DNA of 64,000 nucleotides from Candidatus Magasanikiibacteriota bacterium (GTDB taxonomy: Bacteria; Patescibacteriota; Patescibacteriia; Magasanikbacterales; UBA922): contig DOMK01000001.1 of the NCBI GenBank assembly GCA_003510435.1, positions 26,604 to 90,603 of the forward strand. Direction: 5' to 3'. A program made the position numbers and the translations under genes. Below, piece after piece: positions 24,931 through 32,203 of this stretch. The notes under the pieces were generated by a model. That model did no database searches. It was not told the DNA's origin and was given only the letters and a program-made list of their open reading frames with translations. Within the stretch, counting starts at the first letter, position 1; every line of letters starts with the position of its first letter.

Positions 24931-27900
24931 TCACAATTGTCTAAATTCACAAATTTCCTTAAAATCACAATACTGACAAACATGTTTGTTTGGTGTGGCT
25001 GTAAAATCATTGGATTTAATTTGAGTAATTGTCTTAAGAATTTTTTCTTGTAATTTTTCTAGATCTTTAGCTTCACCAATAAAGGACGTTTTTATATTAT
25101 CATTGACATAATAAAAAGTTAGCTGGCCCACGGGACCAATGTTTCTATATTCAGGTAGAGTCTGAGTCGCGATTTGATAAATCAAAAGTTGTTGTTTGTC
25201 CTCGGTTGTTAAAGTTTCTTTGGACTTGCCAGTTTTGTAATCAATAATTTCTAAACTACCATCCGCTACTTTGTCTATTCTGTCAATTCTACCATGTACA
25301 ATGTAGTTACCTACTTTAACCTTGAACCACCCTTCCAATGATACAGGTACAGTCCACTTGCCATCTTCTGAAGAATAAAATATTTTCAAAATTTCTTTGC
25401 CTTTGGCATAGTATTTTTCCCTTTGTTCACGACTATTGTACCAGTCAGAAGCCCAATTTTTTTCATACATTTCCAATAATTCTTTTTCACTCGGAACTAT
25501 TATCTCCCCAGTATCTGATTTTTTTGTTTCTACTGGTAGACCAAACAAAGACGCTTGCTTGACACTATTTAATTCTTGAATTTTATTATAAAAATCCTGC
25601 AAAGTATTGTGAATGGTATTTCCAAAGCTAAAACTGGCACTGCCTTTCATGGGGATTTTTAAAACATGCGCTAGTTTGTATTGATAAGGACAACGTTCGT
25701 AGGAGCTGATTTGGGAGAAAGAGAACTTGTTGGGTGTTTCGTAAATTAACTCCTCGCCTACTAGAGGAAGTTTAGGAGAAGTCATTTTTAAATCCAAAAT
25801 TTGTTTTTTATCCAGACCCCCTCCAACTCCCCCTGATAGGGGGAGGGCATCAGACAGTTCTGCTAAAAATCTACTAATTTTCTTTTTTCTTGTTCCACCA
25901 TAATCTTCGGCACTGGTTAAAAATAGTTTTTCTTTTGCTCTTGTACAGGCAACATAAAATAAGCGTCGCTCTTCGGAATAATGAAAATCATCACTAGGTA
26001 AATTATCCTTGACTAGCTCATCGGGCAATTCCAAATTACCGCCTTTTTTTCTGGTAGGAAATCTTTCTTCAACTAAATTTACTACAAAAACATATTTATA
26101 TTCCAAACCTTTTGCCCCATGGACTGTAATAATATTAACTGAATCTGGTGTATCTTCTGGCTGGTAAATTTTTCCACCGTCACCGGATTCAATAATATTA
26201 TTAAAATGTTCTACAAATTCTAAGACTTTGCAATCGGGTGTAATTTGTTCAAAAGTTTTAATTAAATCAAAAAGTTGTCTAAGGTAATTTATTTGCCGAA
26301 TAATTTCTCTGTCGCCATTGGTTTCGCCATGAGTCAAGTAAGTTAAATATCCACTATTTTCTAAAAAATTGTATAAAACAGCGGTTGGTCTTTCATATCG
26401 CGCCTGCTTCATACCACTGTGAATAGTTTCTAAAATTTTACTAGCAATTTTTTGTCCGCTAGCAGAAATGTCAAATTCCACTCCTCGTTTTAAAATTTCG
26501 TAATAACTAATAGATTTCTGTTTGGCTCTAGCGGTAATTTTTTGCATGTCATTTTCATCCATTGCCCAGGCTGGCATACGTAAAAGTCGATACATGGCTC
26601 GGTCATCATAAACATGGGTAAGTAATTGAAAAAAAGCTAGGCAATTTAATACAATAGCCTGTCTATAAAGGCCAGATGAGGCCAAATACTCATATGGAAT
26701 ATTAGTCTGCTCTAAAGCGTGAATAAAGGGCTCTACGTGCGAGTTAGCCCTGACTAAAATGGCAAAATCATCCCATGATATTGATTTCACTGATTGTAAT
26801 TTGATTTCACTGATTTTTTTGATTACTTCCTGAACTTCATCATCTAAAGTTTGACAATGTATGTGTTCAATTTCAGTTTTGATGGTATTTTTAGCAATTA
26901 GTTTCTTATCAATTTTTAATTTTACTTCAAGGCGATCAGGATTATTATTTTGAATACTTTTATAACTTAGATCTAAAATTTCTTGACCAGAACGATAATT
27001 TTCATTCAAAACAATTTCTTTGGCATTTTTAAAATCTTCTTTAAAATGCATAATGACTGAAACGTTTGATCCACGGAAACTATAAATACTTTGGTCATCA
27101 TCCCCTACTACTGTTAGTTGACAATTCTGAGGCAAAGCCGAAGAATCCCGCTGTTTATCGCTTGAACCACAGGATCCTTCATCACTTCGTTCTTCAGGAT
27201 TAGCTAATAATTTTATTAATTGATATTGTGCCCAATTTACATCTTGAAATTCATCTACCAAAATATAGGTGAATCTGTCTTGCAAAGTTTTTAAAATATT
27301 TGGTCGATCTTTTAATAATTTGACAGTATAAAAAATCAAATCCCCAAAATCTAAATAACCATTATCCAAAAGTAATTGATTATAAGTATGATAAGCATTG
27401 GCGAGCTCTGTTTGACGATTTTTATCTTGGATATTAACTTCGTCTTTATCCATTTTTACATTTTCCACATATTCCAAATATTCAGTGGTAGAAACTAATT
27501 CATCTTTGGCTTTGGAAAAATGATTCAAAAGCGAATGAATCATAGACATGGGACTACCAAGCGGACGGTAATAATCTAGATTGAAATCGTACAAATGTTT
27601 TTTTACCAAGAGCCAAGCATCAGTGTCAGTAAGAAGTTTGAAACGTGATGGCAAACCAATTTCCAAACCATATTCCTCAAGAATTTTTTGACAAAAAGCA
27701 TGAAAAGTAGAGATTTGTAAATCTGTGTATCCAATATCCAAAATTTCATCCACTCTTTCTACCATTTCGCCAGCGGCTTTTTCTGTAAAAGTTAAGGCCA
27801 AAATATTTTCTGGCTTGGCTAATTTTTGATCAACCAAATAAGCAATCTTTTGGGTGATTACTGTGGTTTTGCCTGTACCTGCTCCGGCCACGATTAAAAG

Positions 27901-27960
27901 TGGACCAGTGGTATATTCTATGGCTTGTTTTTGTTGATTGTTTAGATTATATTCAGACAT
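24931..27960 (-). CDS. UvrD/REP helicase with C-terminal PD-(D/E)XK nuclease (AddA/AdnA-like)
   Basis: AGAGTGKT, DEFQD, GDDDQSIY, HGAKGLE, EERRLFYVACTRA, GRIDRID..IIDYKTG, CPY..CQYC..C. Confidence 0.92.
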   Translation of the reverse strand: MSEYNLNNQQKQAIEYTTGPLLIVAGAGTGKTTVITQKIAYLVDQKLAKPENILALTFTEKAAGEMVERVDEILDIGYTDLQISTFHAFCQKILEEYGLEIGLPSRFKLLTDTDAWLLVKKHLYDFNLDYYRPLGSPMSMIHSLLNHFSKAKDELVSTTEYLEYVENVKMDKDEVNIQDKNRQTELANAYHTYNQLLLDNGYLDFGDLIFYTVKLLKDRPNILKTLQDRFTYILVDEFQDVNWAQYQLIKLLANPEERSDEGSCGSSDKQRDSSALPQNCQLTVVGDDDQSIYSFRGSNVSVIMHFKEDFKNAKEIVLNENYRSGQEILDLSYKSIQNNNPDRLEVKLKIDKKLIAKNTIKTEIEHIHCQTLDDEVQEVIKKISEIKLQSVKSISWDDFAILVRANSHVEPFIHALEQTNIPYEYLASSGLYRQAIVLNCLAFFQLLTHVYDDRAMYRLLRMPAWAMDENDMQKITARAKQKSISYYEILKRGVEFDISASGQKIASKILETIHSGMKQARYERPTAVLYNFLENSGYLTYLTHGETNGDREIIRQINYLRQLFDLIKTFEQITPDCKVLEFVEHFNNIIESGDGGKIYQPEDTPDSVNIITVHGAKGLEYKYVFVVNLVEERFPTRKKGGNLELPDELVKDNLPSDDFHYSEERRLFYVACTRAKEKLFLTSAEDYGGTRKKKISRFLAELSDALPLSGGVGGGLDKKQILDLKMTSPKLPLVGEELIYETPNKFSFSQISSYERCPYQYKLAHVLKIPMKGSASFSFGNTIHNTLQDFYNKIQELNSVKQASLFGLPVETKKSDTGEIIVPSEKELLEMYEKNWASDWYNSREQREKYYAKGKEILKIFYSSEDGKWTVPVSLEGWFKVKVGNYIVHGRIDRIDKVADGSLEIIDYKTGKSKETLTTEDKQQLLIYQIATQTLPEYRNIGPVGQLTFYYVNDNIKTSFIGEAKDLEKLQEKILKTITQIKSNDFTATPNKHVCQYCDFKEICEFRQL

Positions 27961-27992
27961 ATTTATTTATATTTTAGCACAATTTTTGAGAC

Positions 27993-28021
27993 TTGACAAA
28001 GGTGGTAGTATATGATATTTT
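27993..28021 (+). promoter_or_regulatory. Probable sigma70 promoter of the structured-leader/orphan unit
   Basis: TTGACA-17-TATTTT with TG extension. Confidence 0.45.
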
Positions 28022-28037
28022 ATACAGTTCAGTATTA

Positions 28038-28263
28038 TAGGCGAGAGGTCTGTAAGTTTTTGCTTATAGGCCCTTCTCCTAATCGTCGGGAGAGGCGTGC
28101 AAGAGCACGTATAAGTCAGCTGAATGCCGGGGTGTCGGCATGGAAAAACATCCCAAGAGGGGTGGCTGACAGGGATTGTACCCAGACGATAGTCCAAGAG
28201 GACTAGGGCATTGTACTAGTCGTTTAGTCAACGACTGGTGTCTCCAAGCGGAGATATACAATG
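28038..28263 (+). ncRNA. Putative highly structured RNA (leader or ncRNA), family not recognised
   Basis: About ten complementary helices found by eye, three AAGA loops and one AAGC loop; the last helix pairs the ATG. Confidence 0.6.
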
Positions 28264-29196
28264 AATTCCACGACTAAACTGCGGAGAATGACGATGAAGC
28301 GTTGCTTGTCAGAGCAGTTCAACATCCTGATGGATGAATTGGCCTCCATTGGTATGGCTGGCCTCTTCTGCCTCATCATCGGGATGGCCAAGAGCAAGTC
28401 GCAATTGGCCAGGTTCCACAACGAACTCAAGCCCAACCAGCGTCTCGTGCGTGGAGATTATATCATGCTCGAGGACTGGTGGGAGGCCTCGTATGAAAAG
28501 GCCAGAGGAGAACTCACTGAAGTGGCTAGAGAGAAGTTGCAAGAAGTGATTCTTCTCTCCTATCGCAACGAGCACAGTGCTGCGAATCTGAGCCACTACT
28601 ACGAACGGAAAATTAACGAGGAACGTTGGAGTAGAGAACATCCGAAAACCCCGCTTGCAACTTCTAGCGTCAACCTCGTGCTCTCTTGCCCCGAACGTGA
28701 CGGGCATGGCTACCACCACTTTCGCGCGTTCATGTTTAATGTAGAATTTGAAGTCAGTTGTACTTTTCTGGATAGCACACTACTAGTTCATATGTGCATC
28801 AAGAGAAATAAACTGACCGAAAATCTCGTACACAGGATTCTGACGTCCAAGCTGGTTAATGCCAGTTTCGGACATACAGGAGTGTATGTAAATAGTGGTG
28901 ATGAGCTGACCTTCAGGTTCGATCTCGGGGCTGATATAGGTAGGCGCTTGAAGGAGATGATCTCGGCATTTGATAAATCCGAGGGCGCTCACCGACGTGC
29001 TGACGTAGTGGCCATGGACACTTTTGCACATGAGGTTGGAAGAAACCTCATTGACGTCTGTGACCTTGAGCTGGATGGGCTCTACGCTGTAGTGCTGTTT
29101 GTCGCAGATGACCCACGTTGTCTGCAGTCAACGGTATTCGAGGATGGCGCACCGCACGCCAGGCATCGGGTCTGGTGCCATCGCACCAACGCCTAA
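28261..29196 (+). CDS. GC-rich orphan protein
   Basis: 311-aa ORF with GGAG upstream, its own promoter and terminator; no family recognised. Confidence 0.6.
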   Translation: MNSTTKLRRMTMKRCLSEQFNILMDELASIGMAGLFCLIIGMAKSKSQLARFHNELKPNQRLVRGDYIMLEDWWEASYEKARGELTEVAREKLQEVILLSYRNEHSAANLSHYYERKINEERWSREHPKTPLATSSVNLVLSCPERDGHGYHHFRAFMFNVEFEVSCTFLDSTLLVHMCIKRNKLTENLVHRILTSKLVNASFGHTGVYVNSGDELTFRFDLGADIGRRLKEMISAFDKSEGAHRRADVVAMDTFAHEVGRNLIDVCDLELDGLYAVVLFVADDPRCLQSTVFEDGAPHARHRVWCHRTNA

Positions 29197-29236
29197 GACC
29201 ACAGAAGACTTTACAACTCGGAGGATGTGAAGTGAC

Positions 29237-29306
29237 ACGGGCGACCTATGACACCCCACAGGTCGCCCGTTCAAAAAAACAGATATTGTTAAATGTCTGT
29301 TTTTTA
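29237..29306 (+). terminator. Hairpin plus bidirectional terminator
   Basis: acgggcgacct...aggtcgcccgt, then aaaaaaacagatatt...aatgtctgtttttt. Confidence 0.65.
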
Positions 29307-29328
29307 ATATTACATTTTATTATAAATT

Positions 29329-29751
29329 TTATTTCAAAGTAATAATATAAGCTCCACCAGCAATCATGGCTGCACCCATTACACTGCGCCAAGTGAGGCC
29401 CTCACCCAAAAACAAAGCCGCGAGAATAATAACAAAAATTATACTAAGACGGTCAATGGCGACCACTTTTCCAGCCATACCATATTTAAGCGCAAAAAAA
29501 TAAAATAACCAGGATAGTGCGCCGGCAATACCAGATAAAGTAATTAATAACCAATCTTTACCATTTAAAGAATGAAAATTAAAACCATTAAACTTTTTTA
29601 AAGTTAGAGCGACCAGAAATAGAAAAATTGCCATGATAATTGAGCGAATCGTAGTTGCCAGTGTAGAATCAATTGTCTTGAGACCAAGTTTGCCAAAGAT
29701 TGCTACGGCTGCGGCAAAGATGGCAGATAAAAATGCATATAATAACCACAT
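29329..29751 (-). CDS. EamA/DMT family transporter
   Basis: AIFGKLGL, LSWLFYFFALK, IDRLS, FLGE. Confidence 0.9.
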   Translation of the reverse strand: MWLLYAFLSAIFAAAVAIFGKLGLKTIDSTLATTIRSIIMAIFLFLVALTLKKFNGFNFHSLNGKDWLLITLSGIAGALSWLFYFFALKYGMAGKVVAIDRLSIIFVIILAALFLGEGLTWRSVMGAAMIAGGAYIITLK

Positions 29752-29926: not shown

Positions 29927-30047
29927 GTTTTGTATGCTTAAGAATTAATCCTCCTTATTTATATAATACATATTTAGTATGATATGTGTCAAGGGGTGGA
30001 TAACTAGGGATAAAAAAACCAGCCTTTTCAGACTGATTTTTTTGATT

Positions 30048-30194
30048 TTATTCTTCGCTATCTTCTCCAAGTTTTTCGCCGTCCACTTCTTCTTCACTTT
30101 CACTTTCATAACATTCACAACAATCTCCACAACCACCACACTTGGGGCAAAGCTCGTCCTCGCTAAAGGGCATATCACATTTACGACATTCCAT
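30048..30194 (-). CDS. 48-aa Cys-rich acidic protein, metallothionein-like (8 Cys)
   Basis: MECRKCDMPFSEDELCPKCGGCGDCCECYESESEEEVDGEKLGEDSEE (below the ORF-track size cutoff). Confidence 0.65.
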   Translation of the reverse strand: MECRKCDMPFSEDELCPKCGGCGDCCECYESESEEEVDGEKLGEDSEE

Positions 30195-30258
30195 ACTTAT
30201 AATTAATTAGATAGGGTGTCACGCTAGGGACGTGACAGGATATACAATTAAAATTTAA

Positions 30259-30408
30259 TTATTGGCAATTGCAACCACAACCACCATCACCACAACAAGA
30301 TTCTTCTTTCCCTTCTTCTTTACATTCGCAACAAGCTTTACAGCTAGTTTCTTCATCACAGCAAGTGTTTTCTTCGTTTAATTCTACTTCACATTTTGCA
30401 CAATTCAT
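30259..30408 (-). CDS. 49-aa Cys-rich protein, metallothionein-like (13 Cys)
   Basis: MNCAKCEVELNEENTCCDEETSCKACCECKEEGKEESCCGDGGCGCNCQ; consensus promoter upstream. Confidence 0.7.
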   Translation of the reverse strand: MNCAKCEVELNEENTCCDEETSCKACCECKEEGKEESCCGDGGCGCNCQ

Positions 30409-30437
30409 ATTTTTTTAGATTAATAATTATAGATTAT

Positions 30438-31927: not shown

Positions 31928-31999
31928 ACACTACCCCAACCCACCATCCCACTGGATAGCGGGGTTGGCAGCTCTTCCACAACTAATGATGGTTCCGGT

Positions 32000-32203
32000 C
32001 TAGACGACCGGGTAGACCAACGTGTGGTCGGGGAAGAACACTTTCTTTTGTACCATCCCCTCCGACATCTCCACCCAACCTGTGGCGTTGAACTGATGAT
32101 GACCTTCTTGGGTCAACAACAGTTTCTCATAAATTGTTCCATCTGGGTGTTCACCCTGACGAAACTTGCCGTTGATAGGCAATTGACCAAAGCTCATATC
32201 CAT
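32000..32203 (-). CDS. GC-rich orphan small protein
   Basis: 67 aa; TTGACA-16-TAAAAT upstream; structured 3' region. Confidence 0.45.
   Translation of the reverse strand: MDMSFGQLPINGKFRQGEHPDGTIYEKLLLTQEGHHQFNATGWVEMSEGMVQKKVFFPDHTLVYPVV

Follow-up and report, generated by a model that had tools for sequence, protein, structure and literature searches.

What does a large structured RNA do directly in front of a single gene in a Patescibacteria genome, and is it connected with the protein encoded there? The question is raised by a locus within a window of 64,000 nt (the whole stretch of DNA analysed) from a Candidatus Magasanikiibacteriota bacterium (genome G000; 1.21 Mb, 33-35% GC). The original prediction, made from the sequence alone, had described at 28038..28263 an RNA with repeated C-AAGA-G hairpins that locks the start codon of an orphan gene. 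The RNA begins an island of about 50% GC, flanked by a UvrD-PDDEXK helicase gene on one side and an EamA gene on the other; in the congener G001, the same slot contains a DUF4238 gene and a GNAT gene instead.

We folded the segment 28038-28263 and obtained a minimum free energy (MFE) of -98.6 kcal/mol (z = -7.96), better than shuffled sequences, none of which was this stable among 200; the minus strand gave z = -6.02. Every helix named in the prediction was found in place and belongs to the MFE fold, and two pseudoknots, PK1 and PK2, are present besides them. The repeated loops were likewise borne out: four C-AAG(A/C)-G loops start at 28101, 28155, 28196 and 28246, three identical-loop hairpins occurred in none of 5000 shuffles, and 4 of the 17 C-AAG(A/C)-G hairpins (stem >= 5) on both strands of the genome lie within this 150 nt. 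As to extent, the proposed 3' end did not hold, since the element runs on to 28277, 16 nt 5' of the likely start codon; the conserved RNA measures about 205 nt. The description of the RNA as unrecognised stood: Rfam gave nothing at gathering score for the window and nothing for the RNA at E <= 10.

The data from folding and comparison showed a compact, multi-junction layout with conserved junction sequences, composed of two units of a hairpin plus a three-way junction carrying a second hairpin (Table 1). PK1 and PK2 are long-range pairings and do not form a compact H-type monomer. P0 was found in 14 of the 18 loci with an intact 5' end and is absent in L101, L104, L107 and L108; local folding favoured P0 over P1 in 11 of the 13 correctly scored loci, with a tie in the other 2. 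A natural minimal RNA of about 150 nt (L101:1308-1479) keeps P1 and four GGA-loop hairpins and has no accessory hairpins, which makes it helpful for delimiting the core.

Table 1. Features of the RNA-protein cassette, in window coordinates.
Feature	Position	Strand	Basis
Sigma-70-type promoter-like site (TTGACA, 17 nt, TG-TATTTT)	27993..28021	+	10/12 consensus match only
P0, long 5' hairpin, optional; its base and P1 compete for pyrimidine strand 28073-28080	28038..28081	+	MFE fold
P1 hairpin, 28073-28080 with 28088-28095; loop is PK1 5' strand	28073..28095	+	fold, comparison
Pseudoknot PK1	28082-28087 with 28185-28190	+	own-versus-cross pairing, pair swaps
H1, marked hairpin 1, loop AAGA 28101-28104	28095..28110	+	fold, comparison
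P2 three-way junction, 28115-28120 with 28165-28170	28115..28170	+	fold, covariation
Variable hairpin inside P2 junction	28124-28141	+	fold, covariation
H2, marked hairpin inside P2, loop AAGA 28155-28158	28149-28164	+	fold, covariation
P5 long-range helix, 28172-28177 with 28264-28269; encloses P3/H3 and P4 junction	28172..28269	+	own-versus-cross pairing
P3, 28181-28183 with 28206-28208; holds PK1 3' strand 28185-28190	28181..28208	+	own-versus-cross pairing, covariation
H3, marked hairpin inside P3, loop AAGA 28196-28199	28190-28205	+	covariation
P4 three-way junction, 28209-28215 with 28257-28263; contains ATG 28261	28209..28263	+	MFE fold, covariation
H4x hairpin inside P4; loop is PK2 5' strand	28215-28239	+	fold, covariation
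H4, marked hairpin inside P4, loop AAGC 28246-28249	28239-28256	+	fold, covariation
PK2 3' strand, pairs with 28224-28229	28272..28277	+	own-versus-cross pairing, pair swaps
Likely Shine-Dalgarno GGAG	28283..28286	+	sequence; unpaired probability 0.77
Gene, ~300-aa protein, unnamed two-domain family	28294..29196	+	homology, AlphaFold model
GC-rich hairpin 29237-29270, then AT-rich hairpin ending in U-run 29274-29305	29237..29305	+	sequence

The same architecture, with compensatory changes, was found at 19 loci whose proteins are 14-38% identical; these comprise the carriers from the genome survey and 6 metagenome loci retrieved with a sub-clade pattern. The RNA lies directly upstream of the gene in all 19, in reduced form in L101 and cut by the contig end in L111. 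Covariation was quantified over 47 named pairs in a structure-blind MAFFT alignment of 14 loci, the structure itself having been derived from the same sequences. Homologues covaried as the predicted structure implied: 83.3% of cells were paired and the score was 0.485, against 72.2% and 0.265 for the shuffled control (0/500 reached the real value) and 0.13-0.16 for a slid structure; this alignment partly misaligns PK1 (57% paired) and P4 (67% paired). Pairing of each strand with its own partner was also compared, free of alignment, with pairing to the partner strand of another locus, with L101 left out and with helix windows and loop boundaries set by hand. None of 20,000 permutations reached the observed value for PK1 (17 loci) or for P3 and P5 (18 loci), and 4 of 20,000 did for PK2 (18 loci). 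A-U/G-C swaps were seen in both pseudoknots (PK1, 10/5; PK2, 8/7), together with U-A/C-G swaps in PK2. The exceptions are L103 and L109, where PK1 is broken, and L106 and L108, with a weak PK2.

When a covariance model was built from the 14 loci, it located the element where expected in the 5 loci that had been held out. In four genome scans with such models (overlapping samples), strong matches fell at the gene only, in 4/150, 3/150, 2/150 and 2/107 genomes, and no convincing stand-alone copy of the RNA was found; very divergent stand-alone copies could be missed, because the 107-genome scan missed the divergent copy in L108. Weak matches in three genomes (G154, G182 and G561; 17-20 bits) lack the architecture and were rejected. 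A BLASTN-level search with the RNA across 61 related genomes returned, outside G000, only chance matches of 15-31 nt, and an exact scan of genome contigs for the 16-nt hairpin returned 45 loci, none with the architecture.

The claim that the RNA locks the start codon did not fare as well. The longest open reading frame starts at 28261 (311 aa), and its ATG as well as the GGAG at 28250-28253 are indeed paired, but as parts of the conserved helices P4 and H4; ATG 28261 belongs to the 3' strand of P4, after which the strands of P5 and PK2 still follow. In the predicted fold, the unpaired probability is 0.04 for ATG 28261 and 0.72 for ATG 28294. An in-frame start inside the RNA was found in only 5 of the 19 loci, at differing structural positions. 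The protein would carry 16 residues before a conserved Leu if started at 28294 and 27 if started at 28261, compared with 13-25 (median 18) across the 19 loci, whose starts were picked by Shine-Dalgarno (SD) spacing; the database proteins give a median of 18.5, and the database gene call begins at 28288. The true start is thus likely ATG 28294, past the RNA. Since ATG 28261 sits in a conserved helix whereas 28294 is open and gives an N-terminus of the usual length, the locked start codon is most likely a coincidence and that reading is probably wrong. Translation may still be controlled, because across loci about 10-28 nt lie between the end of PK2 and the start codon. The buried and the likely true GGAG...ATG (28248-28265 and 28281-28298) form an 18-nt direct repeat with 78% identity; this repeat, not seen as a conserved feature, is probably due to chance.

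The promoter-like site precedes the RNA, and TTGAC was found 5' of the RNA in most homologous loci. The hairpin pair behind the gene is the probable end of the unit and drew no flag in a strict terminator scan. Between RNA and gene, the terminator scan of the window found no terminator on the + strand, and a U-run between H4 and the start was present in none of 18 loci. Identical contigs from four runs (two samples, one study) match parts of the gene only (28719-28928, 28778-28996 and 29053-29221); these runs are labelled metatranscriptomic and are probably DNA, so they speak neither for nor against expression. From the sequence, we infer that the RNA is transcribed, and together with the gene. 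The locus showed no notable terminal repeats or target duplications.

High GC was considered as a sign of transfer and rejected: GC-rich single-gene islands are frequent in G000 (dozens, at least 36), so GC content alone says little. These islands, for example 31999-32203 (-) of the window, have a GC3 of about 0.5-0.8 in a genome of ~35% GC, and most possess their own TTGACA promoter, a strong SD and GC-rich 3' hairpins; they look like a genome-wide class of accessory cassettes. On contig C3 of G000, adjacent orphan cassettes (ORFs 10662 and 11606) share a near-identical leader hairpin of ~70 nt. Three very small Cys-rich acidic ORFs lie upstream of EamA at 29950-30410 (-) of the window and are also present in G001.

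We further explored the four matching loops, using the 18 RNAs with all four hairpins and permuting loops between RNAs by position. Within single RNAs, 33 of the 108 loop pairs were identical, against 5.6 ± 2.1 expected, a value reached in none of 10,000 permutations. Stem likeness was 0.47 by position between RNAs and 0.34 within an RNA (permuted, 0.30). The stems are position-specific and little alike within an RNA, and therefore the loops, not whole hairpins, have been homogenised. These results argue for selection that keeps the loops of one RNA alike, and against copied hairpins. The shared word differs between loci, being CAAGAG in the window, CAGGAG in L105, CUCGG in L106, CACGAG in L107 and GGGAU in L108, with at least eight natural words across loci; L112, L113 and L114 each carry four different loops. 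Because the word varies between loci, partner specificity would change with the cassette, as opposed to following a conserved host factor. Loop distance was not significantly correlated with protein distance (Mantel r = 0.20, 447/5000). The suggestion that the repeated loops are multiple candidate protein-binding sites linked to the downstream gene gains support from the linkage at 19/19 loci and from the concerted loop identity. A fifth loop site within the gene was also considered; its apparent excess (16 versus 8.6) was not upheld when all loop words and codon shuffles were used (28 versus 26.8 ± 4.1), and neither the loop words nor their complements were enriched in the gene or 3' UTR.

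The downstream gene had been taken for an orphan, and this proved incorrect: HMMER returned 52 other proteins at E <= 0.001, one of them spurious, with relatives 22-38% identical. The spurious match, P0051, is a repeat protein and was rejected; P0046 belongs to the family and carries a long tail. Both were left out of the family alignment of 51 proteins. Word-indexed protein searches returned the protein itself or one more only, and a weak search among longer proteins returned none. The three homologues with an organism name all come from Patescibacteria. Members share no family in Pfam, PADLOC, PHROGs, NCBIfam or PDB sequences. The AlphaFold model (pLDDT 85.3, pTM 0.82) contains a helical part at residues 2-124 and an alpha/beta part at residues 137-289. 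Foldseek with the whole model gave no match at E <= 0.001 in PDB or BFVD, and the best VIA match lay on the helical N-domain (Z 5.8, rmsd 5.0, 84 aligned; 5.4 in a second search); the fold searches used the whole model and do not show the fold as new. ESM Atlas gave no usable feature match. Conserved polar residues are H53, N59, R61, R64, D66, R146, H153, T186 and E187. The protein is not basic (37 K+R versus 42 D+E), and profile and fold searches recognised no RNA-binding or toxin domain in it. Within the family, P0047 and P0049 pair in the tree, have in each case a longest contig of 4268 bases, and may be tandem paralogues on a single contig. P0052 (L097:2278-2505) has a C-terminal tail of ~70 extra aa which by eye resembles the 67-aa orphan at 31999-32203, a small beta-rich domain.

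The cassette is rare: within the class, about 2% of genomes have it. Single copies of the gene were found in 8/401 genomes of the class, 5/240 of the order and 2/401 of the phylum, each count including G000. No family match was found in the phage and plasmid collections, and none of 10 pattern matches on viral contigs, obtained with one sub-clade pattern only, was confirmed. Neighbouring genes are unrelated between loci, and tRNA genes lie near the cassette in 5 of the 19. L113:1130-1346 and L114:2432-4034 share the same tRNA-Gly(CCC)/tRNA-Thr(CGT) pair, which the cassette follows in L113 and splits in L114; this suggests independent insertion or local rearrangement. The lone carrier outside the class, L109:1-3777, is located among LexA/S24-like, DUF3768 and Replic_Relax genes with a possible type IV coupling-protein gene, a region resembling an integrative element. 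In a quick protein tree, G000 grouped with two genomes of the same order (SH-aLRT 99), and two genomes of the same family were placed elsewhere on long branches; transfer is plausible but not proven, because the discordant rows of the tree are the long branches.

What the cassette does is best explained, at roughly even probability, by a four-loop RNA scaffold that binds its own protein and restrains it in the manner of an antitoxin or sponge. A self-contained cassette of promoter, ~205-nt doubly pseudoknotted 5' RNA, one gene and terminator would produce an RNA presenting four equivalent hairpin loops. Several molecules of the protein from the adjoining downstream gene would bind to these loops, and the RNA would keep the protein in a ribonucleoprotein and so limit it by sequestration. 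Feedback on translation would also be probable, given the 10-28 nt that separate the closure of PK2 from the start codon, and the cassette could maintain itself, selfishly or through defence, at changing places in the chromosome. That the loop ligand is the encoded protein seems probable to us; several protein copies would bind each RNA, and a harmful or defensive action of the free protein is conceivable but rather doubtful. Against the scaffold explanation count the non-basic protein with no recognised RNA-binding or toxin domain, the null result for loop and protein distances, the mixed loops of L112-L114 and the absence from phages and plasmids; moreover, there is no obvious route to an excess of RNA over protein, unlike in type III and AbiF systems, because no terminator stands between the two. 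A related and somewhat unlikely possibility is a new class of ribonucleoprotein, in which the doubly pseudoknotted RNA assembles through its four loops several copies of a protein of unrecognised fold, the particle having an activity of its own (defence, addiction or mobility). Such an activity would be unrelated to type III toxins, sponges and RNA-guided nucleases, and the loop code, changing in concert from lineage to lineage, would provide natural orthogonal RNA-protein pairs.

Several other readings were weighed against the same data. That the GC-rich DNA of an orphan island folds by chance, with no functional RNA, is scarcely credible: dozens of GC-rich islands in G000 carry hairpins and transcription here is deduced, but z = -8 against composition-matched shuffles and the compensatory changes at 19 loci largely refute it. 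Under pure cis autoregulation, the protein would have some harmless function elsewhere and would also attach to the loops of its leader, strengthening PK2 or P5 so that ribosomes cannot load; the RNA would never act in trans. This agrees with the constant 5' leader position, the missing terminator, the distance of PK2 from the start and the alternative P0/P1 folds in 14/18 loci. We judge it unlikely, as the SD is open in the predicted fold, P0 is absent in 4/18 loci, and four sites with two pseudoknots appear to exceed what a simple operator needs. The RNA might also be the main agent (structural, catalytic or targeting), with the protein as a folding or effector subunit comparable to those of OMEGA, retron or group II maturase systems, in a particle directed at some external substrate or serving to mobilise the cassette. 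The multi-junction fold with its pseudoknots and conserved junctions, the strict one-to-one linkage with varying neighbours, and the conserved polar residues, which could form an active site, would all suit this; yet no variable guide-like segment was identified, the gene and 3' UTR showed no enrichment of loop words or their complements, the locus lacks notable terminal repeats or target duplications, and no nuclease, reverse transcriptase or recombinase domain was found, leaving it decidedly unlikely. Less probable still is recognition of the loops by a host factor, whether CsrA-like or not, or control of the gene by a riboswitch-like RNA that senses a small molecule. GGA does occur in 18 of 72 loops across loci, with three or more in 5 of the 18 RNAs, and pseudoknots near the ribosome-binding site are common in riboswitches. 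However, none of the four loops in the window contains GGA, the words agree inside a locus and change from one locus to the next, CsrA was detected in 0/5 carrier genomes (92-99% complete) by a search positive in 3/14 controls, and no Rfam riboswitch matched.

On sequence comparison, RNA and protein are both outside catalogued families and are paired across one class of Patescibacteria; the literature searched describes no structured RNA of this sort for the group, nor this RNA or protein, most subscription papers being outside reach. The accessible part of the COMPASS preprint (10.64898/2026.10.21.760802) makes no mention of Patescibacteria, and the motif may be among the unnamed clusters in its database or supplements. 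Four loops changing in step on drifting stems are an unusual mark of a binding code with several sites, and this code, with its natural words, lends itself to a test of cognate versus non-cognate binding. If the protein reads the loops, the cassettes could supply orthogonal hairpin-protein pairs for MS2/PP7-like tools, and possibly represent a new RNA-controlled toxin or defence system.

Known systems resemble the cassette in part. The leaders of ribosomal S15 and T4 gene 32, which form pseudoknots, and the dual-hairpin ANTAR leaders have a fold beside the ribosome-binding region to which protein binds at more than one hairpin; unlike these, the present fold is much larger, has four sites and belongs to a rare accessory cassette with an unnamed protein family. 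OMEGA, bridge RNA and TIGR-Tas systems likewise have a noncoding RNA that strictly adjoins one protein gene, and TIGR-Tas occurs in parasitic bacteria too. In contrast to OMEGA, IS110 and TIGR-Tas, no RuvC, HNH, Nop or recombinase domain was found with Pfam, NCBIfam or PHROGs, and no guide-like segment or array was found, loop words alone having been compared, with the gene and 3' UTR. The P0/P1 alternative and PK2 near the ribosome-binding site might suit a riboswitch platform, yet the terminator is missing and the SD is open, and no known riboswitch aptamer matched in Rfam in the window or the RNA.

Closer likenesses were found among RNAs that hold proteins. As the available portions of the CsrB/RsmZ accounts describe (PMC4005645, PMC12047976), these sponges also show one loop word on several short hairpins, bound by several copies of one protein; they have a fixed GGA, a stand-alone gene and the host protein CsrA, whereas here the word varies and the RNA always comes with the gene of its cassette. 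Type III toxin-antitoxin loci, as far as the source consulted in part describes them (PMC5086642), likewise combine a promoter, a pseudoknotted RNA and a single gene, with RNA sequences that differ between systems; the ToxIN, CptIN and TenpIN antitoxins consist of tandem 34-50-nt repeats cut into monomers and followed by a terminator. The cassette RNA is instead one integrated fold with neither: no tandem repeat family of 34-50 nt was found in 27900-29450, none of the 51 members matched a ToxN, CptN or TenpN family in Pfam, PADLOC, NCBIfam or PDB sequences, and the whole-model fold searches (best Z 5.8) list none of them.

AbiF and its RNA antitoxin RCd22 share with the cassette a structured RNA directly upstream of one gene and repeated hairpin motifs; in the partial account at hand (PMC12373285), RCd22 has two repeated motifs and an intrinsic terminator before the gene, remains uncleaved and co-transcribed with it, and acts both in cis and by binding the protein. 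Our RNA differs from it by four loops on non-repeated stems, two pseudoknots and the lack of a terminator. The Rfam abiF motif RF03085 matched neither in the window at gathering score nor in the RNA at E <= 10, none of the 51 members matched Abi_2/HEPN at sequence-profile level, and the conserved R146...H153 sits between beta strands in the AlphaFold model. Because it has no tandem repeats, no internal terminator and no sequence match to their protein families, we do not count the cassette as a member of type III or AbiF. By its parts, then, the cassette is new; its mode of action is most likely that of RNA-antitoxin or sponge modules, the nearest in working being AbiF/RCd22 and type III systems.
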